The translations under genes were made by a program, and so were the position numbers. A DNA stretch of 64,000 nt from an uncultured Candidatus Saccharibacteria bacterium (lineage in GTDB: Bacteria > Patescibacteriota > Doudnabacteria > UBA920). Of the stretch, positions 21,220 through 57,482 are shown in pieces (the first letter of the stretch is position 1; every line of letters starts with the position of its first letter). The notes under the pieces were generated by a model, which had not been told where the DNA came from, searched no databases, and was given only the letters and a program-made list of their open reading frames with translations. The DNA lies in assembly GCA_964348935.1 (NCBI GenBank), contig CAYGEJ010000002.1, positions 3,540 to 67,539 on the forward strand, in the 5' to 3' direction.

Positions 21220-21292
21220 AAATAATCCAATTTAATACTTAAACCACATTGTTTAATTAAACCGTATCCAATATTTTACTTTCTTCAAACCT

Positions 21293-31360: not shown

Positions 31361-31372
31361 TAAATAAGCAAA

Positions 31373-32581: not shown

Positions 32582-32590
32582 AGCTTATTA

Positions 32591-34345: not shown

Positions 34346-34472
34346 TTATTTTAACTTTTTTGTTTCTGTAATTCTTTCTGAACTTAAAATTATTATACCA
34401 TAGAAGATAAAAAATCCCAAATAAAAAATACCGAAAATACTTTTCCGGTATTTTGATATCTTTTATAGAATT

Positions 34473-35789
34473 TTATCTCCCCTTCCAGGTAAAAATATAG
34501 TAAATTGTCTTTAAAATGATTTCTAAATCAAAAAGAAAACTTCTATTCTTAATATAATATAGATCATACTGTAATTTCATACGACTTTCTTCGATTGTCG
34601 AAGCATAAATATTGAGTTGCGCCCAGCCAGTAATTCCAGGCTTTACCAAATGCCTTTCATCGTAAAATGGAATCTTTTCTTTCATTTCGGCAACAATATG
34701 AGGCTGTTCCGGTCTTGGACCGACTAAACTCATAGTTCCAAATAACAGGTTAATAAATTGTGGCCATTCGTCGATACGACTCTTTCTTAAAAACTTCCCT
34801 ACTGACGTAATTCGGGAATCATTAACGCTTGTCCAAGTATTGGTGGCTCCACCACTCATAGTTCTATATTTATAAACTTTAAAAACCTCACCTTTTTTAC
34901 CAACCCGTTCTTGAATAAATAAAACCGATCCAGGGCTGGTGAGTTTTATAAGTAAGGCACAAATCGGAAAACTAACTAAAAAACCAATAAAACCAATAAC
35001 TCCCAAAACCAAATCAATCAGCCTTTTAGTCAAATTATATAGCCGTTTTTCCTGATAATTAATGTTTTCCAAAAACCAAATTTCATTAATTTGGGATAAA
35101 TACACCCGTCTTAATAAATCCTCATAGAAATCTTTGTGATTATAAAATTTTACTCCAATAGTCCGTAGTTCATAAAACTTTTCAAGAATCTCAGGTTTGG
35201 CATGCAAATTATCAGGCAAAATAATTCCGTCCTGACTGCCAAAATTCGTATTACTAAAAGTCTGTTCATTTAAATGACTAATCACTTTGTACCCTGAATA
35301 TGGCCTGGATATAATCTCTTTTTCTAACTCCATAAGTTCATTATCGAACGAAAAAATATATAAACCTTGGGCAAAACGATTAGCAATAAAATACTTTAAA
35401 GTTAAATGCCATACCAATACAAAAATAAAGGCCAAACCTGCTTCAATTAACAAAAATCTTCTCGGAGTTAAAATCAAGTTCTGTTGAAAATAAAAATATA
35501 AAACTGCAACCAAAACATTCACCACCATTGCGGAGAATAAATTAAAAACCAAAGTGGTATAACGTCGAAAGGAATTTATTTCAAATAAACCGTGAATAAA
35601 AAAAACTACTAGCCAAATTAGAAAAATAACCGAAAAAGCCTGATAATGAATTGCACTTTGTTCGATGGAGATTTGTCCAGCGTATCGAATTTGAATAGCC
35701 AACCAAAGCGAAACATAAAAAAGAAGGCAATCCGGAACTAATATTGCCCAAAAGCTGATATTTTTAAAATTATTGCTATTCACTGCCAT
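34473..35789 (-). CDS. Priming polyprenyl-phosphate sugar phosphotransferase (bacterial sugar transferase, WbaP/CpsE-like)
   Basis: N-terminal TM helices and the C-terminal PF02397 core DLVLGVIGFIGFL...SPGSVLFIQERVGKKG..F.VYKYRTM...DEWPQFINLL.G.MSLVGPRP. Confidence 0.85.
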   Translation of the reverse strand: MAVNSNNFKNISFWAILVPDCLLFYVSLWLAIQIRYAGQISIEQSAIHYQAFSVIFLIWLVVFFIHGLFEINSFRRYTTLVFNLFSAMVVNVLVAVLYFYFQQNLILTPRRFLLIEAGLAFIFVLVWHLTLKYFIANRFAQGLYIFSFDNELMELEKEIISRPYSGYKVISHLNEQTFSNTNFGSQDGIILPDNLHAKPEILEKFYELRTIGVKFYNHKDFYEDLLRRVYLSQINEIWFLENINYQEKRLYNLTKRLIDLVLGVIGFIGFLVSFPICALLIKLTSPGSVLFIQERVGKKGEVFKVYKYRTMSGGATNTWTSVNDSRITSVGKFLRKSRIDEWPQFINLLFGTMSLVGPRPEQPHIVAEMKEKIPFYDERHLVKPGITGWAQLNIYASTIEESRMKLQYDLYYIKNRSFLFDLEIILKTIYYIFTWKGR

Positions 35790-37733: not shown

Positions 37734-38658
37734 TTTCTAAAGAACTAACAATATTTAAATATTTCTCTGCGCTAATTTTAAAAGTAAAATTATTTTTAAC
37801 ATACTTATCTGGCGAAAAACTTTCCTGGACAAATGTTTCTAAAACATTTTTAAAATCACTTACATTTTTAAATCTCATTCCCAATTCGTTATTTAAATAC
37901 GGACTTGCTGTATTGCCTTCAAACTTATATTGATCTTTTGCCCAAAAACCTCGATCCCATACCAAAGTAGGAACATTTCTAACCCAAGCTTCAAACATCG
38001 CAATCCCCTGGCTTTCACTTTCAGTTAAATAAATCAAATACTTGGAACGACTCAACAAATTAAAATATTCTTGCTGAGAAAATTTTCCATATTTTATAAG
38101 CTGATATGAATATTTTTCCCTGCCCAAGTCATCGGTAATATGTTTAATTAAAGCATCTGGACAAGTTTTTGCATAAACAAGAAAATCTGTATCCTTTAAT
38201 GTCCCTATATTTTCACTCAAAGCTACCCCAGCAGCCCATATTCTAATTTTACTCGCGATTTGAGGAGCAACACTGGTGTAAAAATCTTTAACCCATTGTG
38301 AAGGAACAATAATAATATCAATATCCGGGTGCTGTAACATTTTCCCAAAGTCATTTGGAGTAATGGCAATATTAGGCCCGGCAATTATTTTTTTAATATG
38401 ACCTAATTTCTTTTGTTTTAATGCCCAGGCTAAGGTTTTATGATTACTTAAAATACAAGCGGTATGGATTCTGCTGTGAATCTTACTGTTAATGGAATAA
38501 CTCACATTTAACTCATCAAGTCCGGAAACCAAACTTCGCATAACTGCCAAAGGTCCTCTGGAATTTTTGCCCAGTATTTTTTTAATCCAATATTTAAATT
38601 GAGAACTAACAAAGTAATTTTCAGTGTAAATATTAATTTTTTGCATGCAACCTCCCAA
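37726..38658 (-). CDS. Putative GT-B fold glycosyltransferase
   Basis: C-terminal E.QGIAMFEA...PTLV resembles the GT4 C-terminal motif; the N-terminus is unassigned. Confidence 0.4.
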   Translation of the reverse strand: MGGCMQKINIYTENYFVSSQFKYWIKKILGKNSRGPLAVMRSLVSGLDELNVSYSINSKIHSRIHTACILSNHKTLAWALKQKKLGHIKKIIAGPNIAITPNDFGKMLQHPDIDIIIVPSQWVKDFYTSVAPQIASKIRIWAAGVALSENIGTLKDTDFLVYAKTCPDALIKHITDDLGREKYSYQLIKYGKFSQQEYFNLLSRSKYLIYLTESESQGIAMFEAWVRNVPTLVWDRGFWAKDQYKFEGNTASPYLNNELGMRFKNVSDFKNVLETFVQESFSPDKYVKNNFTFKISAEKYLNIVSSLENE

Positions 38659-39541
38659 TCACAGCGAGCAAATCCTTATGTCTTTCCAAATGCAACGCTA
38701 AATACATACTAACACCATCTACAATCTTATCGGATTTAACTTCTTGAAGCTCTGGGGAACACAAAAAAACTTTATAACCTAAATTTTGCAAGTTACTTTG
38801 AGTGTCAAAAAAACTATTATTCTTAAAATTGTTTGAATTTGCTGTAAGGGCGGACTCATACCAAATAACGGGATAGGATAAAGAAATTATTCTTTGAGAG
38901 CCTTTTAACACTTGGAGTTCAAAACCCTCAACATCAATCTTCATAAAATCCGGCAACTTTAAATTATGCAATTGTGCAAACTCATCAAGTTTATAAACTG
39001 GCACTTTAACCTTATCTAATTTACTATGCCTGTTACCTAAAAAATCTTTACTTAAAGAACTTCCGCTTCCTGCTAAAAAAAATTCTGCCTCACCTGAAAT
39101 ATCCCCCAAAGCAACATTATAAATATCACATAGGGAATTTAGATTATTTAAACTCAGTGTTTCTGATTCAATTAAATTATTTTTTTTTATTGGTTCAAAA
39201 GAATACGTGTGAATTTTACCTTTACCAATATAAGCTGCCATTACTCCAAAATAACCCGTGTTAGCTCCTATATCATAAAATACCAACTCCTCCTGCTTGG
39301 TTTGCAATTGCTTAAGTATATTAAGCACTAGCTGCGTTCCGTCAGGTTCTACCACTCCATTATACAAAATGCCGTGTGCTATATCGGACATATCTAAAAC
39401 ATTTCCAGAATACCAAAAACCCACACTAGATTTTACTGCTGTAAAATTATTAACCGCAACCTGTTCAGGAAAATAAACAATTCTTCGATTAATTAGTCTG
39501 CCTAATTTATTTAATACACTTATAAATAAACTTCTGAGCAT
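38633..39541 (-). CDS. FkbM-family SAM-dependent methyltransferase
   Basis: YDIGANTGYFG (SAM motif I) and MKIDVEGFELQVLKG, typical of Methyltransf_21/FkbM. Confidence 0.8.
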   Translation of the reverse strand: MLRSLFISVLNKLGRLINRRIVYFPEQVAVNNFTAVKSSVGFWYSGNVLDMSDIAHGILYNGVVEPDGTQLVLNILKQLQTKQEELVFYDIGANTGYFGVMAAYIGKGKIHTYSFEPIKKNNLIESETLSLNNLNSLCDIYNVALGDISGEAEFFLAGSGSSLSKDFLGNRHSKLDKVKVPVYKLDEFAQLHNLKLPDFMKIDVEGFELQVLKGSQRIISLSYPVIWYESALTANSNNFKNNSFFDTQSNLQNLGYKVFLCSPELQEVKSDKIVDGVSMYLALHLERHKDLLAVIGRLHAKN

Positions 39542-39548: not shown

Positions 39549-40151
39549 TTATTTGTTAATTGATTCCCATTTTGTCTGAGTAATTTTAATCCTTGGGTCG
39601 GAGACAATTAAATGCCAAATTACCCCTTGAAAACTTTCTGAATGAGGTGTAATTCTCTCGGCTGAAGCTTCTGGTACTAACACACACGCATTAGCCACTT
39701 CAGCTGTATAACCACCTTTCGGACCCACAACCCCCCCAATACTGCAACCAACTTCCTTTCCGTAAGTAAGTGCCTCAACTAAGTTAGCACTAACATTTTT
39801 TTCTTTATTTCCACCGCCGACAGAAAAAACAAATAACATATCATTTTTATTTAACCTGCTCCCTTTTAGCCATTCCACAAAAACTGTCGACCAACCCTCG
39901 TCGTTGGTTCTGGCAGTTAATTCAGAAACATTATCTGTCGGGGCATAAGCCTCAAAACCTGCAATCTTGCGAAAATCATTTACGGCATGCGAAGCATTAC
40001 CCGCACTCCCACCAACACCCAATATAAATAAACGGCCGTGCTGATCTCGAACTTTTGCCAATAATTCTATTAAATTGTCGATAGATTTTCTATCCAGTTG
40101 CTGTAATATATTCACCCCTTCATTCAAATATGTGTCTATAAAATTTTCCAT
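39549..40151 (-). CDS. gmhA: SIS-domain sedoheptulose-7-phosphate isomerase (GmhA-like)
   Basis: RLFILGVGGSAGNASHAVNDF and FVFSVGGGN SIS motifs, with a GmhA-like length of about 200 aa. Confidence 0.75.
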   Translation of the reverse strand: MENFIDTYLNEGVNILQQLDRKSIDNLIELLAKVRDQHGRLFILGVGGSAGNASHAVNDFRKIAGFEAYAPTDNVSELTARTNDEGWSTVFVEWLKGSRLNKNDMLFVFSVGGGNKEKNVSANLVEALTYGKEVGCSIGGVVGPKGGYTAEVANACVLVPEASAERITPHSESFQGVIWHLIVSDPRIKITQTKWESINK

Positions 40152-40156
40152 AAATA

Positions 40157-41185
40157 TTACTTAATTTGTATAATCTTACCACTTCGTGCCGAGCGGTACA
40201 AGGCTTCTAAAATTTTATTTACTTCCAAATTTTCTTTGGCATTTGCCAAAGGTTCTCTTTTTTCTAAAATAGAATTTCTAAACTCTTTCCACTCTTCTCT
40301 CCAAGAAATATCTTTTTCTTCAAAGTCAAAAATTTGTTCTTTAGGAACTTTACCAAACCCCACTTCAGTTCCTAATACTAAAGTTTCTTTACCATAACTT
40401 TTTCCAAGACCGTTAATAACCAAATAACCCAGGCTACCAAAAATTTCAAAACTAAATTTATTTTTCCATTGAGTTAAGCTTGAGTGAAAAGTTGCGACCT
40501 GTCCTTTTTTATTTGTAAGTTCGCAAAAAGCATTATCTTCCAAATTACTCTTTTTCCAATAGTAATTACGAGTTATGCCAAATGCTTTTGTAAAACCACC
40601 AATAAACCAATTAGCCAAATCTATAACGTGAACACCTTGGTCAAACAATTCACCGCCAACCGAGTACTTCTTTTGCATTCGCCATTCAGTATCGTATCCC
40701 GGCCTGGCACCATGGCCATAAACGGCTCGCAAATAAAATACCTTACCTATAGCCCCGGACTTCACCAACTCATACGCTTTAAATAAAGCGGGATGGTGTC
40801 GGTGATTAAAACCAACCTTGAGCACACGTTTATATTTTTTAGTTAATCCAAATATTTTTTTCGCTTCATGACTACTTTTTCCAAGTGGCTTTTCTGCTAA
40901 AACATCCTTACCATTTTTTAATGCTTCCGCAACTATTTTAACATTTACATCTGTTGGCGTAGCCACAATTATTACATCTATTAAAGGATCTTTAATCATC
41001 TCTTGCCATGTAGAAAATATTTTTACATTTGTGTTAGTGGCTATCTTTCTGGCGTTTTCTAAATTAACGTCAAAAACACCCGTAACAATATCCCTACCTA
41101 ACTCTGTTATAGCCAGAGCTCTTTTATTGCCAATATTTCCAGCGCCAATAATCCCGACTCTAAATTGTTTTTTATTATTCTTCAT
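40157..41185 (-). CDS. Gfo/Idh/MocA-family NAD(P)-dependent sugar oxidoreductase
   Basis: Rossmann VGIIGAGNIGNKRA and the EKP motif LAEKPL. Confidence 0.85.
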   Translation of the reverse strand: MKNNKKQFRVGIIGAGNIGNKRALAITELGRDIVTGVFDVNLENARKIATNTNVKIFSTWQEMIKDPLIDVIIVATPTDVNVKIVAEALKNGKDVLAEKPLGKSSHEAKKIFGLTKKYKRVLKVGFNHRHHPALFKAYELVKSGAIGKVFYLRAVYGHGARPGYDTEWRMQKKYSVGGELFDQGVHVIDLANWFIGGFTKAFGITRNYYWKKSNLEDNAFCELTNKKGQVATFHSSLTQWKNKFSFEIFGSLGYLVINGLGKSYGKETLVLGTEVGFGKVPKEQIFDFEEKDISWREEWKEFRNSILEKREPLANAKENLEVNKILEALYRSARSGKIIQIK

Positions 41186-41190
41186 AATAT

Positions 41191-42057
41191 TTACTTTGAG
41201 TGAAAATACTTATTATCAATCCTTCTAAGAGTAAATTCGGAATTTTTATTTAAATTTTCAACCCTCTCTTCATTCCACTCCTGCCAGTTATCCCATTTCG
41301 CTGAAATAACTTTACCGGTTAATTTTCCCGAACATAAACTCAAAACGAGTTCAGCAGCTAACTCGGCTGAGTCTCCTCCGCTCTTCTTTTGTTGTAATGA
41401 TTTTTCATAAAATTCTTTACCTACTTTTTTTACACCGGCTTTTAATACTTTATCTAGGAACAAAGTATTAATTGCTCCTGGAGCTATAGCATTCACTTGA
41501 ATATTTTGATCTTCGAATTCCTTAGCTAAATTTTCTGTAAACCTTACTACCGCTGCTTTAGAAGTCGCATAGCAAGAAAAATTTGGAAAAGGCTGAACAG
41601 CCCCACCACCGGAAAGATTAATTATTTTGCCACTCTTCTTCTTTAACATTAAAGGTAATACTGCGTTGCATGAATAAGCAGTACCAAGTAAGTTAATATT
41701 CATTGCCTCTGCCCATAAAACCATATCGTTTGTTTCAAACCTCCCAATTGGTCCATAAACCCCAGCACAGTTTACCAGCACATCTATTCTTTTATACTTT
41801 TTATAAATTTCACTATAAATTTTTTTTAAAGTATTAAATTTAGAAACATCAGCTTTATAAATTTCGCAATACCCCAATTTCTGAATTTCTTTTTGAGCTT
41901 CTTTAAGTTTATTTATCTGTCTGCCTAAAATAACAACAACTGCCCCAGCTTTACTAAAACTTTTTGCCACCATAAAACCAATTCCACTGGCTCCGCCTGT
42001 AACAATTACAACTTTTTTGGTAAAATTATAAGTCATATTTTCCAATCCCCGTTCCAA
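41191..42057 (-). CDS. Short-chain dehydrogenase/reductase (SDR)
   Basis: TGGASGIG; NCAG; YxxxK (YATSKAA). Confidence 0.85.
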   Translation of the reverse strand: MERGLENMTYNFTKKVVIVTGGASGIGFMVAKSFSKAGAVVVILGRQINKLKEAQKEIQKLGYCEIYKADVSKFNTLKKIYSEIYKKYKRIDVLVNCAGVYGPIGRFETNDMVLWAEAMNINLLGTAYSCNAVLPLMLKKKSGKIINLSGGGAVQPFPNFSCYATSKAAVVRFTENLAKEFEDQNIQVNAIAPGAINTLFLDKVLKAGVKKVGKEFYEKSLQQKKSGGDSAELAAELVLSLCSGKLTGKVISAKWDNWQEWNEERVENLNKNSEFTLRRIDNKYFHSK

Positions 42058-43327
42058 AATAGTTAAAATTTAATGATTCTAAGTCATTTTTAGATAAAAT
42101 ATTTTTGGTATCAAATATATTTAACTGCTTCAAATTTTTACTAATTTTATTATAATCCAAATTTTTAAATTCCGGCCATTCGGTAATTATTACAACAGCA
42201 TCAGCTCCCATACTTGCCTCATAAGGATCGCTAAATAATTTTACAGGCAAAACCAGTTTTGGGTTGTCTAGCGATGGATCGAAACCATTCACCACAGCGC
42301 CCTTTTTGGTTAGCCAATTTGCAATCTCCAAAGCTAAAGATCTGCGTAAAGTGTTGGTTCCTGGTTTGTAGACCAAACCAAACATGACGATTTTCTTTCC
42401 TTTTAAATTCTTAAGCTGTCCAATAATTTTTTTATAAAATACTTCTTTTCGATTTTGGTTAATTTTATAAATAACAGTAATAAGGGGTAAGCTAACTTTA
42501 TTTACTTGTGCCAAGCCTTCCAAAACCCTCAAATCCCGTCCCAAAGTCCCCCCGGCAAAACCTAAGCCCGGTGCCAAAAACGCCTTTTGACCTATTCGAG
42601 TATCGCTTTTCATTCCTTTAACCACATCTACAATATTTGCTCCCAATTTTTCACTTAAGTCAGAAATTTGATTTATAAAGCTTACGGACATTGCCAAAAA
42701 ACTATTCACTCCATGCTTCACAAATTCCGCACTTTCCAAAGACATAAATAAAATTGGATTTTTATAAAAACTATAAAAATCTCGCATTCTTTCTTCTGCA
42801 ACTTTTGAACTTACTCCAATAATTTGCCTGTCGGCATTTAAGTAAGTATCTATAGCCTGGCTGAGTCTTAAATTTTCCGGGTTATAAACTACTTCCAAAC
42901 CTTTAATTTTTTTCTTTAACTTATTAAAAATTTTCCTGGAAGTTCCGGCTGGAATCTGGCTCATAATTATTACCGTGGAATTTGTACTTGCGTACTTACC
43001 TATCGCTCTTACAGCTTTCTCAATTACAAATAAATTCGGCTTGTCGTTGTCTCCTACTGGAGTATCGTAACCAATTACAATAAACTGACTACCCTTGAGT
43101 TTGCTAAAGTCCGAAGTAAAACTCAATTGCTTGAGTTTTAGCATTGTTTGAGTAAGCTCTGTAAGCCCAGCTTCCTGTATGGGCAGAATTCCTTGCTGTA
43201 GTTTCTCAATATCTTTTTTATCAAAATCGAACCCTGTAACATTAAAGCCTGAACTTGCTAAACTGGCTGCGACACTACAACCCAAATGCCACAATCCAAT
43301 TACTGCAACATTTTTTTTATTTTCCAT
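42026..43327 (-). CDS. UDP-sugar 6-dehydrogenase (Ugd/WbpA/WecC family nucleotide-sugar dehydrogenase)
   Basis: VAVIGLWHLGCSVAAS NAD-binding motif, GLGFAGGTLGRD catalytic-Cys region, and about 433 aa. Confidence 0.85.
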   Translation of the reverse strand: MENKKNVAVIGLWHLGCSVAASLASSGFNVTGFDFDKKDIEKLQQGILPIQEAGLTELTQTMLKLKQLSFTSDFSKLKGSQFIVIGYDTPVGDNDKPNLFVIEKAVRAIGKYASTNSTVIIMSQIPAGTSRKIFNKLKKKIKGLEVVYNPENLRLSQAIDTYLNADRQIIGVSSKVAEERMRDFYSFYKNPILFMSLESAEFVKHGVNSFLAMSVSFINQISDLSEKLGANIVDVVKGMKSDTRIGQKAFLAPGLGFAGGTLGRDLRVLEGLAQVNKVSLPLITVIYKINQNRKEVFYKKIIGQLKNLKGKKIVMFGLVYKPGTNTLRRSLALEIANWLTKKGAVVNGFDPSLDNPKLVLPVKLFSDPYEASMGADAVVIITEWPEFKNLDYNKISKNLKQLNIFDTKNILSKNDLESLNFNYFGTGIGKYDL

Positions 43328-44324
43328 TTGTGTGCTGATATAAATTTAACAAAACCTTACTTCCTTCAAAATCATAGTTAAACGGTAATTCGGTTAAGCC
43401 TTTTTCCGAAAGAACCCTTCTAAATTCTTTTCGATTATTGGGAACGAAAAATAAAAATAAACCGCCGCCGCCACTACCCATAATCTTACCTCCTTCAGCT
43501 CCATTTTGCATCGCCAAATCATAAACCTCATCCATCCAGGGATCGGAAATTTTTGCAGACATGGTTTTTTTAGCTTGCCAGTGTTTGTGCATTAACTTAC
43601 CAAAATTACTGCAATCCCCATTTTCAAATTCAGAAAGAATTTGCACTCCTATATTTTTTATTTCTAGCAAAGCCTTTTCTACCTGGCTTTCACTTATAGA
43701 AGCATTTTCACTCTGTTCCTTTAAAATATCTGTGGTGTCATGTTGCTTGTGGGTGTAAAAAAGCACACACTTATACTCGAGCTCTTCTATTAAGTCTGAA
43801 CTTATGTTTGCCTGTCTAGATTTAACCACACCGTCCCTGTCTATATTTAATACAGTAAACCCACCTAAAGAGGCTAAGTACTGGTCCTGTTTACCAATTG
43901 GTTTTTTTAAAGTTTCTAATTCTATTTTGCATGCTAAATCCGCCAACTCTTCCCGGGAAATAACATCTCTATTTAGTTCATACAAGGCTTTAAGTAACCC
44001 TATTAAATACGCAGACGAAGACCCCATTCCGGTTCCAGCAGGAAGGTCTGCAAAAGACGAAATCTCAATTTGGTCATTTATCCCAGCATGCCTTAAAGCT
44101 TCTCTGGCAAGTTCGTGCTTTAATTCCTCTAACTTAACAACAGTTTCAGATGTAGAATATTTTACTCTAATTAATTTATCTACAAGGGGTTTATTTAAGG
44201 CAACGTAAATATACTTATTAATGCTCGCACTAAAAATAAAACCGCCATGTTTTTTGTAAAAATTTGGTAAGTCTGTTCCTCCCCCGCCCAAAGGCATACG
44301 GAATGGTGTTCGTGTAATTATCAT
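43317..44324 (-). CDS. GHMP-family sugar kinase (D-glycero-alpha-D-manno-heptose 7-phosphate kinase HddA-like)
   Basis: MIITRTPFRMPLGGGGTDLPNFYKKHGG N-terminus and GHMP motif PAGTGMGSSSA. Confidence 0.7.
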   Translation of the reverse strand: MIITRTPFRMPLGGGGTDLPNFYKKHGGFIFSASINKYIYVALNKPLVDKLIRVKYSTSETVVKLEELKHELAREALRHAGINDQIEISSFADLPAGTGMGSSSAYLIGLLKALYELNRDVISREELADLACKIELETLKKPIGKQDQYLASLGGFTVLNIDRDGVVKSRQANISSDLIEELEYKCVLFYTHKQHDTTDILKEQSENASISESQVEKALLEIKNIGVQILSEFENGDCSNFGKLMHKHWQAKKTMSAKISDPWMDEVYDLAMQNGAEGGKIMGSGGGGLFLFFVPNNRKEFRRVLSEKGLTELPFNYDFEGSKVLLNLYQHTNGK

Positions 44325-45085
44325 TATTGTTTAAAATACTTATTAGCTTTTTCTAAACTTTCTAAATTATCTATACCAAATAGAGCTTCATGTGGCTCAA
44401 TTACATACCCTTTTAGTTTTTTTAAATTATTTAGCATTTCCGGAAAAACATGCTTGCCAAAATCGTAAAAGGTTTTTGCAGGAATATAGTTTAATACTTC
44501 TGGAGTTAACTTATAAATACCACCATTTACATAATTTATTTCCGGCTTATGCTGGGCTTCGTAAAAACCTACAACATTATTTTGTTCGTCTATTTCCACT
44601 ACACCTCCTGCAATTCCACTGTTTGCACTTTTTGTCCTGTCGAATAACAATAAACTTCCAACCTCGTCTTTTCCTAAAGTTTGTTTTATAAATTTACTAA
44701 AATCTAAATCAAATAAATTATCTCCATACACCACCAGGAACTCTTCATTATTTTTAAAATGATGTTCTACTTTTTTTAAACCGCCTGCGGTTCCTAATAT
44801 TTCCGGTTCATGGGAATATTCGATATTTACACCAAAATCACTACCGTCTCCAAAATAACTAGTAACTGCTTCTGGGAAATAATGTGTATTAATAACTAGC
44901 TCTGTAACTCCCGCATTTTTTAACTGGGTAATTGTTCGTTCTAAAATTTTCTTCCCCGCAACTTCCACCATAACTTTTGGCTGGCTTTCTGTTAACGGAC
45001 GAAGTCTGGTTCCAAGCCCAGCAGCCAATACAAAGGCTTTTCCGCCAAAGGCCGATCCCGCTTCGCGGGACATATTATTTACCAT
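44324..45085 (-). CDS. Sugar-1-phosphate nucleotidyltransferase (heptose-1-P guanylyltransferase HddC-like)
   Basis: AFVLAAGLGTRLRPLTESQPKVMV NTP-transferase motif; about 250 aa. Confidence 0.75.
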   Translation of the reverse strand: MVNNMSREAGSAFGGKAFVLAAGLGTRLRPLTESQPKVMVEVAGKKILERTITQLKNAGVTELVINTHYFPEAVTSYFGDGSDFGVNIEYSHEPEILGTAGGLKKVEHHFKNNEEFLVVYGDNLFDLDFSKFIKQTLGKDEVGSLLLFDRTKSANSGIAGGVVEIDEQNNVVGFYEAQHKPEINYVNGGIYKLTPEVLNYIPAKTFYDFGKHVFPEMLNNLKKLKGYVIEPHEALFGIDNLESLEKANKYFKQ

Positions 45086-45087
45086 AT

Positions 45088-46083
45088 TTATAATTTCTCC
45101 TTAACAACATATTTTTTTATATACTCAATACTTCCACCCATACCCTGCTCCAAACTAACTTTAGGCTTCCAACCTAAAGCACTGGCTTTGGTTATGTCTG
45201 CTAAATTCTCCTGCGCCTCTCCAACTTGGTCTGGCCTAAATTCTGGTTCAATATTACTTCCTAAAATATTTTTTATAGTTTGAAAAATATCCAAAATAGA
45301 AATATTTTTTCCTGTACCGAGGTTATAAATTTCGCCATTAGTACGATCATCGTTCATAGCCAAAATATGAAAATCGTTTAAATCGTCTACATGAATAAAA
45401 TCTCGGCGTTTACTGCCATTACCATAAATAATAGGACTTTCGCCTTTTAACATTTTTATTATAAAAGCGCTAAAAACTGGTGGAATACTACGTCGATAAT
45501 CTTGCCTTGGTCCGTAAACATTAAAATAGCGTAGCGCAGTGGTCTTGAGTCCGTAAAAACGTTCGAATGCCTCGCCAAAATATTTAGTTGCCATTTTACT
45601 CACTGCATAAAAAGTTTCCGGATGTTCGTCTGTTTCCGGTGTTGGTAAAATTTTACTACCCTCATATATTGCAGAAGTTTCAGCATAAATTACTTTACGC
45701 ACCTTTGCCTTAGCAGAGGCTAAAAATACATTTACAGTTCCAGTTACATTTATATCTGCCGTACCCAACGGGTCAGTTTGACAATCTGGAATGCTGTTTT
45801 TTGCAGCAAAATGAAAAACTGTATCTACCCCTTCAAATATCGGATAAATTTCCGGACTTCGAATATCTAACTGATGAAATTTAACCCCTGTTGGGATTTG
45901 CTCTTTGACTCCATAAGCTAAATTATCTATACCTATTACTTCGTACCCTTCCCCAATCAATCGATCTGCCAAATTACTTCCAATAAATCCAGCGACACCT
46001 GTAATTAAAACTTTTTTATTAGCCATATCTTTACAAAATTTTAACAAGTAATTGTACTGAATTTTACCATAAAAATGCCTCAA
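45088..46083 (-). CDS. NAD-dependent nucleotide-sugar epimerase/dehydratase (candidate GDP-heptose 4,6-dehydratase)
   Basis: VLITGVAGFIGSNLADRL, YxxxK in YAVSKMATKY, 331 aa; located within the heptose gene set. Confidence 0.8.
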   Translation of the reverse strand: MRHFYGKIQYNYLLKFCKDMANKKVLITGVAGFIGSNLADRLIGEGYEVIGIDNLAYGVKEQIPTGVKFHQLDIRSPEIYPIFEGVDTVFHFAAKNSIPDCQTDPLGTADINVTGTVNVFLASAKAKVRKVIYAETSAIYEGSKILPTPETDEHPETFYAVSKMATKYFGEAFERFYGLKTTALRYFNVYGPRQDYRRSIPPVFSAFIIKMLKGESPIIYGNGSKRRDFIHVDDLNDFHILAMNDDRTNGEIYNLGTGKNISILDIFQTIKNILGSNIEPEFRPDQVGEAQENLADITKASALGWKPKVSLEQGMGGSIEYIKKYVVKEKL

Positions 46084-46096
46084 TAGGCAATAAAAA

Positions 46097-46636
46097 TTAA
46101 CTTAAATACTTAGGAATTTGCCCTAGAGATTCCACCTGAAAATCAAAGCCGGTAACTTCTATATTATATTTTGTCTTGACTAAAATACTTTTTATTCCAG
46201 CGTTCATGGCGCAGTCTATATCTTTCTGGCTATCACCCACCAAATAACTTTCTTCAAGATTTATCCCATAATCTTTTACTGCATCTAACACTAGTCCAAT
46301 TTTTGGTTTTCTACAATTACAATTATCCTTGTTGTCATGAGGGCAAACATAAATAGCGTTTATAGTTGGGATGTGTATTTTTAAAAAATCATGCATTTGG
46401 TTTAGTTCTTCCCATTCCATTTTGTTTCTTGCAATATCTGGTTGGTTGGTAATAATAATATTTAAAAAACCCAAAACTTTGGTTTTTGCAAGCACCTCTG
46501 CAACACCCTCAAATAAGTTAAAATCCTGATATTTTAATGGCGAGACATTTTGTTGGCCATCTTGCCTAAGAGCAACAACATGGTTTAAAACTCCGTCCCT
46601 GTCCCAAAATATCGCTTTGTTGTTAAGTTGTGTCAT
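46097..46636 (-). CDS. gmhB: D,D-heptose 1,7-bisphosphate phosphatase GmhB (HAD-IIIA)
   Basis: IFWDRDGVLN HAD motif I; Cys cluster CPHDNKDNCNCRKP; GDS motif III. Confidence 0.8.
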   Translation of the reverse strand: MTQLNNKAIFWDRDGVLNHVVALRQDGQQNVSPLKYQDFNLFEGVAEVLAKTKVLGFLNIIITNQPDIARNKMEWEELNQMHDFLKIHIPTINAIYVCPHDNKDNCNCRKPKIGLVLDAVKDYGINLEESYLVGDSQKDIDCAMNAGIKSILVKTKYNIEVTGFDFQVESLGQIPKYLS

Positions 46637-46637
46637 T

Positions 46638-47870
46638 TTAATTCGGATAAAATTTTCTTAAAACTTTATAGAGTGATGGGAGTAAATAAGTAACTTGTTT
46701 ACCCACAAAAAAGGGAAAAGCTAATAAATTATTCCAATATAAAATTAAATAACCTTTAACATTTCCCAAAGTAGAATTGCCATAATATTTCGAGCAAGCT
46801 TCTCTAAAATCTGCTATTATTTTTTTTGATTGATTTTCAATTCCAAAAATTTCTAAAGCTCTAGCTCTTGCTAATTTACCCATATGCCGAATTTCATTTT
46901 TGTGTTCTAGCATCCACTCCATATTTTTAAAGTATTGGTCAACATTATCCACTTCGGCCCATAAGGAATACGAGGCATCTAGAATATCAAAATGGTCATT
47001 ATGAAAGTGGGACTTGTGAGTTAAGATTGGGTCTCCTGCAAGCATGGCTTCGCCAATTGCCATCCCTACGGTTTCTCCGTCTTTGCGAGCATGAGCAAGG
47101 ACGTCTATTTCATTATAAAATTTTCCTAAACCTTCAGTTTCGGTAATTGCATTTCTATACTCAATATTCTTCACTCCTAACTTTTCTGCCAAAGCAAGCC
47201 ACATTGGTGGTGGGTTAACCACAATATATTTAACTTTACTTGTATATTTGTCTTCTAATTTTTTAAATGCTTTTAGCGCAATAGGATCAAAAATATTGTC
47301 GTCCGATCTACCAATTCTACCAAATAACAACTGTTCACCAATAGGTTTTTTTTGTAAATACTTTTCTTCAAAATCTTCTAAAGGATTAAAAAAAAGTTTT
47401 ACACCACTAACTCCCCTAGCCTTTATTCTTTCAGCATTTTCTTTTCCTGAAACATAAACCAGTGGTACATTTCCATTGTTAGCAAAGTGTCCGAATGGTG
47501 ATATTAATACCAAAGGAATACTTGCAGGAATAGTATTTATTGGGAATTGATAATGCGCGTAGACAGTTGTATAAACACATTGAATATTATACTGTTTAAG
47601 AATTCTTAAAATACCTGGCATCATACCAAGTAATTTATGAGGCTCCTTCAATTGTTTTCTTTTAAAATTAAACTCGACTATATTAACACCAGATTTTACC
47701 AAATCCCCTGCTAAAGCAGAGTCACTAACGGGACCACCTGCAAAAAATACATTAAAATCCTTACTCAAAATTTTTGCCATTTGTCTTAATAGCTTTTGAG
47801 TACTGCCGTAAAAATAACCTTGTTCATCAAAAATTAATATATTATTTTTGGTCATTTTTAGAACTTTCAA
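46638..47870 (-). CDS. Putative GT-B (GT4-like) glycosyltransferase
   Basis: C-terminal E..G.AIGEAM..G.P.I GT4 motif. Confidence 0.45.
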   Translation of the reverse strand: MKVLKMTKNNILIFDEQGYFYGSTQKLLRQMAKILSKDFNVFFAGGPVSDSALAGDLVKSGVNIVEFNFKRKQLKEPHKLLGMMPGILRILKQYNIQCVYTTVYAHYQFPINTIPASIPLVLISPFGHFANNGNVPLVYVSGKENAERIKARGVSGVKLFFNPLEDFEEKYLQKKPIGEQLLFGRIGRSDDNIFDPIALKAFKKLEDKYTSKVKYIVVNPPPMWLALAEKLGVKNIEYRNAITETEGLGKFYNEIDVLAHARKDGETVGMAIGEAMLAGDPILTHKSHFHNDHFDILDASYSLWAEVDNVDQYFKNMEWMLEHKNEIRHMGKLARARALEIFGIENQSKKIIADFREACSKYYGNSTLGNVKGYLILYWNNLLAFPFFVGKQVTYLLPSLYKVLRKFYPN

Positions 47871-48705
47871 TAGCTACTAAAATTTCTTTTTTCCCTTTGA
47901 CGTATGCCTCTTCCATTTTTTCTAAAGTGAGTCCGTGCTCTAGTTCGTAAAGTCTGGTTGCTACTAGGAGTCTTGAAAAAGCAAACAGCAACCCATTTAA
48001 GAGCCCAATTACACCCATTCGCCAAGCACCCTTTAAATAAAAAAGTCTAAAGTAGTTTGCCATGCTACCAAAAGTATAAAACAAACTAAATTTTCTGCTA
48101 TGACTTTCAATTTTATATCTAGCTTCTTCATTAGCATACCTTAAATGGCCTTGTACAAACTTATTCATGTCATACAAGCTAAAATGATAAATTGCCACTT
48201 TTTCACTGTAAGACAAGGTTAACTGCTCCTCTGGCTTTCCTAAAAATGTGCCGAAATGGTGGATAAAGTTTCCTTTAAAAGATACAAAATCGTGCATAAA
48301 AAAATTACCGTACTTTGCACGCATCATTTTATGTTTTATATCTCCCCACATATAAGTATAAACTGGAATATTAACCAATTTATATTTTTCCTGAGTAGAT
48401 AACTCCACCATTTTTTGGAGCAGTTCCAAAGTTAACATATTATCTGTCCAGCCCCAATACAGCCATGGGGTTTTTATATACTGTTTTATAAACAAATAAG
48501 TTTCTTCGGTTTCAATAAACGGTTCTTTAGTTTTAGGACGAACTATAAAAGGCACGCCTAATTTTTCAACAATTTCTTTAGTATTATCTGTGCTGTGGTC
48601 ATCAAAAACTATTACCTCACCAAAAGGTAATACATTACGTATAACATATTCTATTCTGTATGCATCGTTATACGAGAATAAAATAAAAGTAATATTTTTA
48701 GTCAC
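47842..48705 (-). CDS. Family 2 glycosyltransferase
   Basis: ITFILFSYNDAYRIEYVI...VIVFDDHSTDNT. Confidence 0.7.
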   Translation of the reverse strand: MTKNITFILFSYNDAYRIEYVIRNVLPFGEVIVFDDHSTDNTKEIVEKLGVPFIVRPKTKEPFIETEETYLFIKQYIKTPWLYWGWTDNMLTLELLQKMVELSTQEKYKLVNIPVYTYMWGDIKHKMMRAKYGNFFMHDFVSFKGNFIHHFGTFLGKPEEQLTLSYSEKVAIYHFSLYDMNKFVQGHLRYANEEARYKIESHSRKFSLFYTFGSMANYFRLFYLKGAWRMGVIGLLNGLLFAFSRLLVATRLYELEHGLTLEKMEEAYVKGKKEILVAIESSKNDQK

Positions 48706-48729: not shown

Positions 48730-50028
48730 TTAGTAACTAGACGGGGTTTGATTTTGGTATTTTTGTGTCTCAGAATAAAGCAAGCCTTTTTGTAACAAAA
48801 ACTCTCTAACTATTTTAGTTAAATAATCTATCATATCGTCGTTAAGACCATGATGAGCTGCAACCAAAAAAGTATTTTTCATAACCATATCTGACCCAGC
48901 AAGCTCACCTGAGACTTTAATTCCGTACTTATTATTTTTATAGGCGGGATGCCTTAAAATATTACCAGCAAACAATACCCTAGTTTGAATATGGTTGGTT
49001 TCTAAAAATCTTAACAATTCTTTTCTAACAATTCCACTTTCGGGACGAATTGTCACAGGAAACGCTAACCAATATACTTCTGCACCGGGAATTTCTTCAG
49101 GGACAATAAAAAACTGTTCGAATTGTTTAAAGAAACGGTAAATTTTTTCAAAATTACTTCTACGAATTTTATTAAATTCAGCAAGTCGATTTAACTGCAC
49201 AAGCCCAAAAGCAGCCTGCATTTCTACAGCTTTCATATTGTAACCAACTTCTAAAAAAGCAAACTTTCCGTCGTAATCTATATTGTCTAGTTTAAAGTTG
49301 TATCGTTCTTCAAAGGCACCTTCGTAATGTTCGTAATGTTCAGGAAGAGCTCTTCCCCAGTCTCTTAGTATTTTGGCTCGTGTAATCATTTCAAAATCAT
49401 CACACATTATCATTCCACCACCACCGCCTGCTGTAATATTATGAGAAGCATAAAAACTTGTAGTTGTTATATCTGCCCAACTACCACTTGGCCTGCCTAA
49501 ATACTTTCCGCCAATACTATCACAACTATCTTCAATTAATTTTAATTTGTATTTATCACAGATAGCCCTCAATCTGGCCATGTCGTTAATGTTTCCCATA
49601 ATTTGCGGAAGCATTATGGCAACAGTTCTAAAAGTAATAGCTGCTTCAATTTTATCTATATCAATATTGTAATTTCCGGGTTTGGAGTCTACTAATACCG
49701 GGATTAAACCTTTTTGTACAATTGGAGCAATAGTTGTACCAAAAGTCATAGCAGGAGTAATTACTTCACTACCTTTAGGAAAATTTAAAAGTTCAAAGGC
49801 TAACAAGTTGGCAGCAGAACCGGAATTAACAAACAAGCCGTATTTTTTTCCAAAAATCTCGGCAACTCTTTTTTCAAATTCAATTGTGTATTTACCGTTC
49901 CCTAACCAATCTTCATTCAAAGCCTTCACCACTGCTTGAATTTCTTCTTGTCCATAAACAGATTTGGTGTAATATATCCAATCTTCGCCTGGTTTAAATT
50001 TCTGTTCTGGGTTTAATAAATAGTTCAT
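48730..50028 (-). CDS. DegT/DnrJ/EryC1/StrS-family PLP-dependent sugar aminotransferase or dehydratase (long RfbH/E1-like form)
   Basis: FVNSGSAANLLA, the PLP-Lys region, and a length of about 432 aa similar to CDP-4-keto-6-deoxyglucose 3-dehydratase-type members. Confidence 0.8.
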   Translation of the reverse strand: MNYLLNPEQKFKPGEDWIYYTKSVYGQEEIQAVVKALNEDWLGNGKYTIEFEKRVAEIFGKKYGLFVNSGSAANLLAFELLNFPKGSEVITPAMTFGTTIAPIVQKGLIPVLVDSKPGNYNIDIDKIEAAITFRTVAIMLPQIMGNINDMARLRAICDKYKLKLIEDSCDSIGGKYLGRPSGSWADITTTSFYASHNITAGGGGGMIMCDDFEMITRAKILRDWGRALPEHYEHYEGAFEERYNFKLDNIDYDGKFAFLEVGYNMKAVEMQAAFGLVQLNRLAEFNKIRRSNFEKIYRFFKQFEQFFIVPEEIPGAEVYWLAFPVTIRPESGIVRKELLRFLETNHIQTRVLFAGNILRHPAYKNNKYGIKVSGELAGSDMVMKNTFLVAAHHGLNDDMIDYLTKIVREFLLQKGLLYSETQKYQNQTPSSY

Positions 50029-50830: not shown

Positions 50831-51661
50831 TTAATTATAGAATGTATTATATAATAGTTTGTCTACTTTATTTTTAGCCACTTCACCTTTTGCAATTCTT
50901 GCAATTTTGTTTATCCAATCTTGGATAAAGGTATTTACCAATGGCTTAACTATTACGGTTTTATATTTAAACTTATTTATATTTTCTAAAACTTTTACAA
51001 ACTCCTGTGCTATATCTTCCACATAAGCTAATTGAACTTTAACATTATTTGTAACTTTAAATTCTTTCCAAGTCTTTATATTTTCAATAATTTGAGGAGT
51101 TAACCGAAGTGGTTTAACATAAGTATCCCCTATGCCAAAAGCAGTAGGGTACTTTAATAAAACAACTGGCAATTCTTTGTTAGTTAAGTACGGACTTATA
51201 AAAAGGTCACTAACAGTTTTAGAAAAGTCGTAAGGCTTTGCCCATAAATTTTCTATTTCTTCTTCTGTGATATTAGAGCTTACCGCCCTGCTACTAGATG
51301 CCAGTACCAAGCCTTTTAAATTCTTCTGTCCTTTTACTGCTTCTACTATATTAAAGGTTGAGGCTACATTGCCCATTAAAGCTTCCTGCATATTTTTTGG
51401 TCTAAGCACTCCAGCTAAATGAACAATATAATCAAAATTATTTTTTACTAATATTTTTTTAGTTTCTGTGAGACTATTTAAATTACAAAATAATATTTTA
51501 GTTTTTTTATTTAAACTGGATTTGTAAAAATTATTTTCTCGATTTTCATTTCTAACAATACAGAATAAATCCGCACCTTGGCTTAAAAGTGCCTTCGCTA
51601 CATAACCACCAATAAAACCTGTTGCCCCAGTTAATAATACTTTTCTACCTTTTAGTGACAT
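50831..51661 (-). CDS. NAD(P)-binding epimerase/dehydratase-family protein (short, atypical)
   Basis: VLLTGATGFIGGYVAKAL Rossmann motif; 276 aa. Confidence 0.65.
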   Translation of the reverse strand: MSLKGRKVLLTGATGFIGGYVAKALLSQGADLFCIVRNENRENNFYKSSLNKKTKILFCNLNSLTETKKILVKNNFDYIVHLAGVLRPKNMQEALMGNVASTFNIVEAVKGQKNLKGLVLASSSRAVSSNITEEEIENLWAKPYDFSKTVSDLFISPYLTNKELPVVLLKYPTAFGIGDTYVKPLRLTPQIIENIKTWKEFKVTNNVKVQLAYVEDIAQEFVKVLENINKFKYKTVIVKPLVNTFIQDWINKIARIAKGEVAKNKVDKLLYNTFYN

Positions 51662-53218: not shown

Positions 53219-53954
53219 AATTTTTCAGTTCGTCAGGTGTCCCAATTATCCACCGGGTTAAAACTGATGCAATTTTAATGTGTTTGCCTGCTACAATTAG
53301 TTCGTTATAACACGGACCAACATAAAATTCATTATTATAGGTTTTGTTGCCGGCAAATTGGGTTTCCGCTGCTTGCACGTAGTCCGAGCCTTTTTTAAAA
53401 TAGTACATACCAATCGTCGCCAAATTGGATATTGCCTGTTTTTCTGCCACCTCTACCACATTTCCACCACTATCAACTTTCGCATAACTATAGCTTGGGT
53501 TAGTTGCTTCAAAGCAAGGAATAACCCCATCTGGGTCTTCTTTAACAATTATATCCCAAATATTGCTGGTCATATAAGTATCGCAATTGTAAATAAACAG
53601 CTTACTGTCGTTGTCTATGTACTGCTTGGCAAGCATACACGATTTACTTTGACCATTTAAAACCCCAGTCGCAGGAATAACTATAGTCTGTTCTCCAAAC
53701 AGTGCTTTGAGCTTAACGTCTATTTGATACTTTTCTATATGTTCATGCAAAACCACAAAAATCAATCTGTAATTCTGAATTTTATCTAAAAAATTAAAAG
53801 ACTTCATTGCCCACTCCACCATAGTCTTTCCCAATACCGGTATTAAAGGTTTTGGATCTATAAACCCTGCCTGAACAAACCTAGAACCCATTCCGGCCAT
53901 TGGAATTAAAATATTCACCTGTGCTTGATTTTCTGAATAAAATTTTGAGTCCAC
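53196..53954 (-). CDS. NTP-transferase-fold protein (putative (cyclitol/alcohol/sugar)-phosphate cytidylyl- or nucleotidyltransferase)
   Basis: ILIPMAGMGSRF...KPLIPVLGKTMVEW glycine-rich nucleotide-binding N-terminus, as in IspD/LicC/NTP_transf_3. Confidence 0.5.
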   Translation of the reverse strand: MDSKFYSENQAQVNILIPMAGMGSRFVQAGFIDPKPLIPVLGKTMVEWAMKSFNFLDKIQNYRLIFVVLHEHIEKYQIDVKLKALFGEQTIVIPATGVLNGQSKSCMLAKQYIDNDSKLFIYNCDTYMTSNIWDIIVKEDPDGVIPCFEATNPSYSYAKVDSGGNVVEVAEKQAISNLATIGMYYFKKGSDYVQAAETQFAGNKTYNNEFYVGPCYNELIVAGKHIKIASVLTRWIIGTPDELKNFEQNYKE

Positions 53955-55097: not shown

Positions 55098-55104
55098 ACA
55101 TTTT

Positions 55105-57335: not shown

Positions 57336-57342
57336 ACATTTT

Positions 57343-57380
57343 AAAAAACTTGTCCCAGTATATATTGGGGCAAGTTTTTT
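57343..57380 (+). terminator. Rho-independent terminator
   Basis: aaaaaacttgtccc...ggggcaagtttttt. Confidence 0.55.
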
Positions 57381-57482
57381 AGTATTGACCCAAGCCTAAT
57401 TTTAAGCTAAAATAATCAATCGTGGTCAAAGAACTTTTGCAGTAGATACCACGAAAGCCGTTACAACAAAACGGGAGGAACA

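Follow-up and report, generated by a model that had tools for sequence, protein, structure and literature searches.

A putative operon for a nucleotide-activated seven- or eight-carbon aldose in a glycan locus of an uncultured Doudnabacteria bacterium

Eight co-oriented genes and their enzyme families

The window considered here, that is the whole stretch of 64,000 nucleotides analysed from contig CAYGEJ010000002.1 (assembly GCA_964348935.1, an uncultured Candidatus Saccharibacteria bacterium assigned to the Doudnabacteria), carries between positions 39549 and 46636 eight open reading frames (ORFs), all on the minus strand and either overlapping or separated by intergenic gaps of 13 nt at most. 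In the order of transcription, they encode a HAD-IIIA phosphatase (46097-46636), an extended short-chain dehydrogenase/reductase (SDR) resembling GalE (45088-46083), a sugar-1-phosphate nucleotidyltransferase (44324-45085), a GHMP anomeric sugar-phosphate kinase (43317-44324), a nucleotide-sugar dehydrogenase-family protein similar to UDP-glucose dehydrogenase (UGDH; 42026-43327), a classical SDR (41191-42057), a Gfo/Idh/MocA oxidoreductase (40157-41185) and a SIS-domain ketose-phosphate isomerase (39549-40151). A first-pass annotation made from the sequence alone had located these ORFs and their common orientation correctly and had read them as a GDP-heptose pathway with a 4,6-dehydratase; five genes of its list stand, while the three internal oxidoreductases (40157-43327), which belong to the same conserved block, had been left out. 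This work re-examines which sugar the operon may produce, the enzymes being compared with those of the heptose routes (GmhA, HddA, GmhB, HddC) and of the lincosamide antibiotic pathways (Lmb for lincomycin, Ccb for celesticetin). Families were called with Pfam and NCBIfam models, the bit scores being read against the curated cut-offs, solved structures were searched and related loci were retrieved by tblastn.

The SIS protein, which matches SIS_2 and stands in the position of GmhA or LmbN, has GmhA as its only named relative, at 32-49 bits vs. NCBIfam cut-offs of 209-320 (48.9 vs. 209.45 for TIGR00441 and 40.4 vs. 320 for NF010547), which is below the GmhA equivalog level; among solved structures, GmhA entries alone are matched, and weakly (38.5 bits for the best). 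All the top Foldseek hits of its AlphaFold2 model (pLDDT of 91.8) are GmhA structures, the first being 2xbl (TM-score of 0.78, root-mean-square deviation of 1.9 Å and 25% identity), and a GmhA fold is predicted from this model. The residues His61, Glu65, Gln172 and His180 of GmhA (E. coli numbering) correspond to H55, D59, E172 and H180, both histidines being kept, Glu being replaced by Asp and Gln by Glu, and the phosphate-binding S-T-S-G loop bears a 6-residue insertion relative to GmhA. The E. coli reference used for this mapping is taken to be the GmhA sequence; a B. pseudomallei GmhA segment (H64, E68, Q175, H183) came from the structure search, with a numbering that fits the mutant names of GmhA structures. 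When 77 SIS proteins of related loci were aligned with GmhA, the D59/E172 signature and the loop insertion proved invariant in 66 close homologues, the D59/E172 pair being also largely kept in a second, more distant SIS subtype. Because the active-site replacements and the insertion are invariant across these 66 proteins, the isomerase would represent a distinct subfamily of the GmhA fold, which is merely called "SIS domain-containing protein" at NCBI and whose identity across phyla in the related loci (54-72% by tblastn) is above that of the kinase (40-59%). Regarding the second subtype, a second SIS-type match lies beside the first in loci L013 and L078, and in L095 the second subtype occupies the usual slot of the first.

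The GHMP kinase (HddA/LmbP-like) finds its best NCBIfam model in HddA (NF049969), matched over the full length at 162.7 bits vs. a cut-off of 600, and its best solved relatives in the heptose kinases 4usm, 3k85 and 4n3o (135-152 bits, the next family reaching 59), with E = 4e-43 for the best of them vs. 6.5e-15 for fucokinase; it shares 31% identity with 4usm, which we take to be WcbL. It has more than 6,700 homologues with E ≤ 1e-20, labelled "galactokinase" at NCBI and given heptose names in JGI annotation. The HAD phosphatase (GmhB/LmbK-like) scores 118 vs. 178 (NF006506), 101 vs. 150 and 88 vs. 250 bits with the GmhB models and passes the cut-off of the subfamily-domain models TIGR01656 and TIGR01662; its DRDG motif and C-x-H...C-x-C-R-K-P zinc loop are kept in 64 homologues, and it is sometimes fused to the SIS protein in related loci. 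As for the nucleotidyltransferase (PF00483 at 9.6e-38, in the position of LmbO or HddC), the stop of which overlaps the kinase start, mannose-1-phosphate guanylyltransferase is the best NCBIfam model (140 bits vs. a cut-off of 440) and HddC (NF049965) only the sixth-best (94.9 vs. 300); in solved structures, 8x7s, deposited as a UTP-glucose-1-phosphate uridylyltransferase, gives 114 bits vs. 67 for the HddC structure 5xhw. The earlier assignment of these four proteins as GmhA, HddA, GmhB and HddC is thus retained for the families, the co-orientation and the reaction logic, and for HddA as the nearest model of the kinase, while no protein reaches its equivalog cut-off and HddC is not the nearest model of the nucleotidyltransferase. 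Judged by sequence, the four enzymes would be relatives of the heptose pathway at the family level and not at the equivalog level, and an activation logic running from ketose-phosphate isomerase to anomeric GHMP kinase, distal HAD phosphatase and nucleotidyltransferase is well supported.

The extended SDR (LmbM-like) had been taken for a 4,6-dehydratase-like enzyme. Its best solved relatives are 4-epimerases, first 4zrm (217 bits), which was deposited as a UDP-glucose 4-epimerase, then an epimerase of the Methanobrevibacter type and the enzymes WbpP and WbgU, vs. 137 bits at most for dehydratase structures; the gmd model yields 46.6 bits for a cut-off of 415 and the heptose_epim (HldD) model 110 for 275. 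In 4,6-dehydratases, a Thr-(Asp/Ser)-Glu motif, with the acid after Ser/Thr, accompanies YxxxK. The present protein has T-S-A instead, within the stretch YAE-T-S-A-IYEG...YAVSK, and the family motif (YAE[S/T]SAxYEG plus YxxxK) is equally devoid of an acidic residue after Ser/Thr. Homologues with 53-76% identity are encoded immediately upstream of a window-type nucleotidyltransferase in 15 loci. The true start is likely Met20, giving 45088-46026, the gene caller reporting a 312-aa product in the identical contig L001. On these motifs and matches, the protein is predicted to be a GalE-type epimerase and not a 4,6-dehydratase, and the scan of the other SDRs of the cluster brought up no candidate dehydratase bearing a T-D/S-E motif.

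This assignment bears directly on the reading of the first-pass annotation, in which GDP-heptose would undergo 4,6-dehydration followed by epimerisation and reduction to a 6-deoxyheptose, as with the Ddah/Mlgh enzymes of Campylobacter jejuni or the Dmh enzymes of Yersinia pseudotuberculosis. The analogy fails because 45088-46083 is a GalE-type epimerase lacking the catalytic acid, the key enzyme being consequently gone. The best or only named relatives GmhA, HddA and GmhB, the GmhA-like fold of the SIS protein, the heptose names of JGI homologues and the presence of Cj1427-like and Fcl-like enzymes in the cluster do speak for it; yet the four activation proteins lie far under the equivalog cut-offs, HddC is not the best match of the nucleotidyltransferase, the SIS protein differs at two of four metal or catalytic positions in a manner invariant across its family, this family is linked to a transaldolase while the C. 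jejuni route comprises four enzymes, and three internal oxidoreductases would be left unexplained. A 6-deoxyheptose thus appears very unlikely.

Regarding these oxidoreductases, the UGDH-like protein, in the position of LmbL, displays the three-domain architecture of the UDP-glucose/GDP-mannose dehydrogenase family (PF03721, PF00984, PF03720) and scores above the cut-off of TIGR03026 (323.5 vs. 189.8) but not of TuaD (287 vs. 700). In its GGTLGRD motif, Thr takes the place of the catalytic Cys of GGxCxxKD, a replacement found as GGTL[G/A]RD in 18 out of 18 module-linked homologues, plus L093 and L095, while unlinked UGDH paralogues retain the Cys (GGPCFPRD). As the catalytic Cys for the four-electron oxidation is absent, the protein is predicted to be unable to act as a conventional uronic acid-forming dehydrogenase; it is probably a two-electron oxidoreductase, and the module-linked Cys-less proteins would form a distinct subfamily. 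The classical SDR (adh_short, PF00106 at 3.6e-52), with a conserved S...YxxxK motif, is a predicted tailoring ketoreductase or dehydrogenase. The Gfo/Idh/MocA protein (PF01408, PF22725, PF02894), encoded between the kinase and the SIS protein, stands in the position of LmbZ, which we assume to be of the same type; the named models that match it best, those of inositol and sugar dehydrogenases, all stay under their cut-offs, no close relative was found among solved structures (93 bits for the best) and its EKP and DQGxH motifs are conserved.

Recurrence of the module across bacteria and archaea

A pattern scan of a genome collection, with one genome per species, returned at least 598 kinase loci confirmed by tblastn, of which 80 were kept. 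These are distributed over Acidobacteriota, Planctomycetota, Chloroflexota, Nitrospirota, Firmicutes, Proteobacteria, Bacteroidota/Ignavibacteria, Actinomycetota, Verrucomicrobiota and other bacterial phyla, and also include the archaeal Micrarchaeia, Woesearchaeota and Thermoplasmatota. Co-occurrence was counted in the 55 well-covered loci, those extending 5 kb or more on each side: the SIS protein accompanies the kinase in 54, the HAD phosphatase in 49 and a transaldolase-family protein in 48 (87%), the gene of the latter being often translationally coupled and lying a median of 2.8 kb away from that of the kinase. The pair of Gfo/Idh/MocA and classical SDR genes is present in 20/55 loci, and the UGDH-like gene in 9/55, always together with both. 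The gene arrangement is non-random, the block recurring in register in many phyla, and the module belongs to a large family, as yet uncharacterised, made of a transaldolase-linked core (SIS, kinase, HAD) with, in part of the loci, an oxidoreductase extension. Gene order in L087, for instance, is epimerase-transaldolase-kinase-HAD-SIS. This locus belongs to the cultured actinobacterium Curtobacterium sp. BRD11 (JAUZUZ010000008.1, 135502-156110), where the operon is tightly coupled and adjoined by carbamoyltransferase, GT2, Gfo/Idh/MocA and SDR genes, and which is a tractable organism for the pathway.

Such figures also weigh on the idea that the operon is a mosaic drawn from hexose pathways unrelated to one another, with the kinase and the nucleotidyltransferase as a salvage pair, the UGDH-like, Gfo/Idh/MocA and DegT-family proteins as a Wbp-type route to a 2,3-diamino-uronic acid, and the SIS and HAD proteins as incidental neighbours. 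The latter three families do recall WbpA, WbpB and WbpE, and "galactokinase" is the NCBI name of the kinase homologues. Against this, SIS, HAD and kinase occur together in 49-54 of the 55 loci, HAD-SIS fusions exist and galactokinase models reach only 27-44 bits on the kinase, which makes a mosaic the least credible of the readings considered here. The Wbp-type uronic-acid route was rejected on its own terms, the catalytic Cys of the UGDH-like protein being missing and the DegT protein (48730-50028, see below) being a dehydratase.

The closest homologues of the kinase come from Portnoybacteria and Parcubacteria bins, which, together with the context, makes the organism probably a member of the candidate phyla radiation (CPR). 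The four closest syntenic relatives of the window, L003, L093, L094 and L095, are of the CPR type and share the order GT2-GT1-HAD-epimerase-nucleotidyltransferase-kinase-(UGDH)-SDR-Gfo-SIS, L093 being a Portnoybacteria contig whose kinase is 75% identical to that of the window. Heptose glycans had been described at first as unusual for a low-GC, small-genome lineage, a view that is not supported, the same block being present in no fewer than four CPR-type contigs besides the window. In L003, a CPR contig of 949 kb, a second, paralogous set lies 5 kb from the module (14254-17289) and comprises a nucleotidyltransferase-HAD fusion, a GHMP kinase 33% identical to that of the window and a SIS protein belonging to the second subtype. 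Since two redundant pathways of four enzymes each would hardly be expected to persist in a genome of this size, the two sets probably handle different sugars.

While automated annotation labels thousands of such loci "GDP-heptose biosynthesis", the evidence gathered here points to a separate uncharacterised family, set apart by a particular active-site signature, by a transaldolase dedicated to it and by oxidoreductases embedded in the block; its members range from Acidobacteria and Firmicutes through CPR bacteria to archaea of the DPANN group.

Glycan cluster, tailoring genes and cyclitol-like operon

The operon is part of a cluster of glycan genes, about 20 kb long and on the minus strand, with a Wzx-like flippase (51665-53218), glycosyltransferases and an Acyl_transf_3 protein. 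The cluster ends in an initiating Bac_transf gene (34473-35789, minus strand), directly followed by pilB, pilC and pilM of the type IV pilus, Bac_transf and pilus genes together spanning 30269-35789. The Bac_transf-pilB junction recurs in the related contig L095 (18347-20619), and from its occurrence in both the glycan may possibly be linked to pilus glycosylation. Next to the SIS gene lies a gene for an FkbM-family methyltransferase (38633-39541, minus strand; PF05050 at 2e-20, TIGR01444 above cut-off), found in the same slot after SIS in L003 and L094 and inside the block in L093; this protein probably O-methylates the sugar or the glycan. Pfam confirmed the FkbM and Acyl_transf_3 families as first annotated. 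Directly upstream of the module, Pfam identifies a GT1-like (46638-47870) and a GT2-like (47842-48705) glycosyltransferase, both on the minus strand, the pair being found in the same place, with 52-67% identity, in L003, L093, L094 and L095; they are candidate transferases of the module's sugar.

Further upstream, the flippase gene is flanked by genes for a divergent nucleotidyltransferase-like protein of 252 aa (53196-53954) and an SDR of 276 aa (50831-51661), both on the minus strand, homologues of which were not found in any related locus except the identical contig L001; they may represent the start of a second nucleotide-sugar pathway feeding the 3-dehydratase described hereafter. Besides, plus-strand ORFs of 85-134 aa inside minus-strand genes (40484-40786, 43804-44208, 44392-44691 and 49682-49939) are shadow ORFs and no genes.

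The DegT-family protein encoded at 48730-50028 (minus strand) is an RfbH/E1- or ColD-like, PMP/PLP-dependent NDP-4-keto-sugar (NDP, nucleoside diphosphate) 3-dehydratase. It scores 391.8 bits with the RfbH model NF011936, just under the cut-off of 423, and 289-293 bits with the solved structures 3bcx and 3bb8 vs. 168 for ColD. Its alignment displays SFYASHNIT, with His for the Schiff-base Lys, and no Cys where E1 has DCYCAPGCDNTC, the four Fe-S cysteines of E1 being absent; it is thus probably E1-like in sequence and ColD-like in mechanism, with no need for an E3 partner. A copy with 84% identity is encoded beside the module in the Portnoybacteria contig L093.

Two further tailoring genes are encoded distally on the plus strand. 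The protein at 62086-63015, first described as an epimerase, is not a plain one, as it matches PDB 6vo6 over its full length (274 bits, E = 1.4e-80), a structure that we take to be Cj1427/MlghA and that makes it a Cj1427/MlghA-like NDP-sugar C4-dehydrogenase. Cj1427/MlghA is an alpha-ketoglutarate-recycling C4-dehydrogenase acting on GDP-manno-heptose (PMC10680097, PMC7949155). The protein at 63049-63984 is, as first proposed, an Fcl-like 3,5-epimerase/4-reductase, with 115-138 bits to solved GDP-L-fucose synthases (138 for the human enzyme) vs. 68-91 for Campylobacter heptose reductases, and 155.6 bits vs. a cut-off of 500 for NF047922. Their operon continues past the window (L088, 10984-13634) with a PseC/ArnB-like C4 aminotransferase and ORFs of 253 and 211 aa of unknown function, an arrangement that hints at a 4-amino-4-deoxy sugar, or an L-configured one, formed without any 6-deoxygenation. 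Neither the scanned ORFs of the cluster nor the next 5 kb past the window gave a match to a cupin C3/C5 epimerase or to dTDP_sugar_isom; such an epimerase activity could come from the Fcl-like enzyme. The Cj1427-like, Fcl-like and RfbH-like genes are not in the conserved module and are absent from the wider family, their products probably making 4-keto-derived variants (3-deoxy, 4-amino or L-configured) of the module's sugar or of another NDP-sugar. Of the Campylobacter analogy, the 6-hydroxy branch is retained, with its Cj1427-like, Fcl-like and RfbH/ColD-like members, which as a group recall the enzyme set for 6-hydroxy, 3-deoxy or L-configured heptoses, while the 6-deoxy branch of DdahA/DmhA falls with the missing 4,6-dehydratase.

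A canonical or near-canonical GDP-manno-heptose could be envisaged, tailored without 6-deoxygenation by C4 oxidation with the Cj1427-like enzyme, followed by 3-dehydration, 4-amination or 3,5-epimerisation/reduction, with the internal oxidoreductases acting at C6 or C7. Such a route would account for the three tailoring enzymes and for the C4 aminotransferase just past the window, and it agrees with the lack of a transaldolase in the CPR clade and with a sedoheptulose-7-phosphate (S7P) cyclase homologue in the window. Yet the tailoring genes lie outside the conserved module, the scanned ORFs include no cupin C3/C5 epimerase, and the SIS signature together with the GalE-like 4-epimerase fits a gluco or galacto configuration better than manno, so that this route is considered unlikely.

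The cyclase in question belongs to a plus-strand operon (54117-58385) encoding an unknown protein of 326 aa, a dehydroquinate synthase-like cyclase (55105-56253), an aldo-keto reductase (56250-57335) and a weak match to the inositol-monophosphatase family (57483-58385). The cyclase gives 323 bits with PDB 4p53 ("Cyclase") and 211 with 5tpr, vs. about 130 for true dehydroquinate synthases; 4p53 is presumably ValA, the 2-epi-5-epi-valiolone synthase, and 5tpr presumably desmethyl-4-deoxygadusol synthase. The aldo-keto reductase reaches 424 bits with the L-glyceraldehyde-3-phosphate reductase subfamily, for a cut-off of 448. By these similarities, the operon looks like a C7-cyclitol pathway within a CPR glycan locus, and none of the related loci has an equivalent. 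A scheme in which the module and the cyclase together make an NDP-cyclitol, following an acarbose-like logic, was considered and set aside, the cyclase being absent from all related loci and hence no part of the conserved module. Elsewhere in the window (20314-22777, minus strand), the adjacent genes for glucose-6-phosphate dehydrogenase and a short 6-phosphogluconate dehydrogenase constitute the oxidative branch of the pentose-phosphate pathway; neither transaldolase nor transketolase was seen among the scanned ORFs of the window.

The predicted sugar and its relation to known pathways

Taken with the FkbM methyltransferase and the two glycosyltransferases, the eight genes probably form one operon, an activation and tailoring module of the Lmb type, which would build and tailor a nucleotide-activated C7 or C8 aldose for a Wzx-dependent surface glycan. 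The GmhA-fold SIS protein would isomerise a ketose phosphate, either S7P or D-glycero-D-altro-octulose-8-phosphate, into the aldose phosphate, the GHMP kinase would phosphorylate C1, the HAD phosphatase would remove the distal phosphate (C7 or C8) of the resulting sugar 1,n-bisphosphate and the nucleotidyltransferase would form the NDP-sugar. The GalE-like SDR would then epimerise the latter, probably at C4, before the UGDH-like, Gfo/Idh/MocA and classical SDR enzymes carry out redox steps on the side chain or the ring, methylation being ascribed to FkbM. By analogy with the products of LmbN and LmbM, a GalE-type epimerase and an altered isomerase site would fit a gluco or galacto configuration.

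To our knowledge, the thio-octose branch of lincomycin and celesticetin biosynthesis is the only characterised pathway that assembles a transaldolase with SIS, GHMP, HAD, nucleotidyltransferase, epimerase, "dehydrogenase" and oxidoreductase proteins. There, LmbR forms D-glycero-D-altro-octulose-8-phosphate from fructose-6-phosphate or S7P and ribose-5-phosphate, a compound that ordinary transaldolase is also able to make (PMC5854111). LmbN isomerises octulose-8-phosphate, LmbP, LmbK and LmbO lead to GDP-octose, and LmbM, LmbL, CcbZ and CcbS convert the latter into GDP-lincosamide (PMC12945683, PMC4351081). In 2015, the closest non-lincosamide relatives of CcbK, CcbN, CcbZ, CcbP and CcbO were found in Solibacter, Sorangium, Acidobacterium and an uncultured acidobacterium, the best such hit of CcbN being annotated "sugar phosphatase" (PMC4351081). 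These taxa and architectures are those of the present family, and the label fits the HAD-SIS fusions of the related loci. As a candidate for LmbN, the 280-aa protein P0249, obtained by a HMMER search with the SIS protein, was discarded as a truncated HAD-SIS fusion, LmbN being a fusion of a carrier protein and a SIS domain; a search seeded with the actinobacterial SIS homologue P0220 reached neither LmbN nor CcbN.

Regarding the chain length, an octose is tentatively put first, a non-canonical heptose (e.g. of gluco or galacto configuration) is a substantial possibility in its own right and a canonical manno-heptose is improbable. It is conceivable, on a tentative basis, that the module as a whole is a widespread cell-envelope NDP-octose pathway and the evolutionary source of the lincosamide sugar, the window encoding an octose glycan possibly carried by type IV pili. 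Should this be true, eight-carbon aldoses would be common and overlooked in the surface glycans of prokaryotes, CPR bacteria and DPANN archaea among them. If octoses or gluco/galacto-heptoses are made, a new class of surface-glycan sugars would emerge, the origin of the lincomycin octose pathway would be explained and enzymes would become available for glyco-engineering.

Several points weigh against an octose of the Lmb type. No transaldolase is encoded in the 64-kb window, nor within 10 kb of the module in L003, L093, L094 and L095, nor in roughly 5 kb of sequence past the 3' end of the window; because the window and its CPR relatives lack it, the strongest argument for an octose is indirect for this locus, the supply of octulose-8-phosphate by an ordinary transaldolase being here only a possibility. 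S7P is probably available in the cell, since the window encodes a homologue of S7P cyclases. Every named best hit of the SIS, kinase and phosphatase proteins is a heptose enzyme, and the characterised relative of the Cj1427-like enzyme acts on GDP-manno-heptose. Besides, nothing in the lmb set corresponds to the classical SDR, and the DegT protein of the cluster is of the 3-dehydratase type, not an LmbS-like C6 transaminase. Furthermore, we know of no unbranched octose reported in bacterial surface glycans, and a literature search on octoses in glycans or on characterised homologues of the module found nothing relevant. A heptose is a legitimate reading of the locus.

Compared with the heptose routes, the GDP-heptose route of C. 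jejuni consists of four enzymes and no transaldolase (PMC10680097). These enzymes, Cj1424, Cj1425, Cj1152 and Cj1423, belong to the same four families as those of the window and follow the same reaction logic, but the family of the window is transaldolase-linked and has oxidoreductases embedded in 20/55 loci. With respect to the GmhA/HddA/GmhB/HddC route in general, the window misses the equivalog cut-offs, its SIS protein differs by the Asp/Glu replacements and the loop insertion, and its nucleotidyltransferase is nearer to ManC and 8x7s; the module is thus not this canonical set and has no 4,6-dehydratase. As for C. jejuni capsular tailoring, Cj1427/MlghA, the HS:5 C3-dehydratase and Cj1428/MlghC/DdahC find Cj1427-like, RfbH/ColD-like and Fcl-like counterparts in the cluster, while neither a DdahA/DmhA-type 4,6-dehydratase nor a cupin C3/C5 epimerase was detected among the scanned ORFs of the cluster and the Fcl-like protein is nearer to true GDP-fucose synthases. 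The HldE-type heptose route has the SIS and HAD families in common with the window, which lacks the HldE-type bifunctional kinase/adenylyltransferase, its kinase being of the GHMP type.

The likeness to the lincosamide pathway was judged by enzyme family, protein size and gene order from published descriptions. Seven of its nine enzyme types are encoded in the operon (SIS, GHMP, HAD, nucleotidyltransferase, GalE-like, UGDH-like and NAD(P) oxidoreductase). The lincomycin operon is ordered lmbR-S-O-P-Z-N-M-L (PMC12945683) and has in common with the window the run nucleotidyltransferase-kinase-oxidoreductase-isomerase, into which the UGDH-like and SDR genes are inserted in the window, lmbZ lying between lmbP and lmbN as the Gfo/Idh/MocA gene lies between those of the kinase and the SIS protein. 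Protein sizes are similar, those of the celesticetin set being 202 aa for CcbN, 323 for CcbP, 185 for CcbK, 232 for CcbO, 325 for CcbM and 436 for CcbL (PMC4351081). The two differ in context, an antibiotic cluster vs. a Wzx/glycosyltransferase glycan locus, and in the transaldolase LmbR, which has no equivalent in the window and the CPR clade, though 48/55 of the related loci carry a transaldolase-family gene. By analogy in composition and arrangement, the family would resemble the lincosamide octose pathway as much as the heptose pathway.

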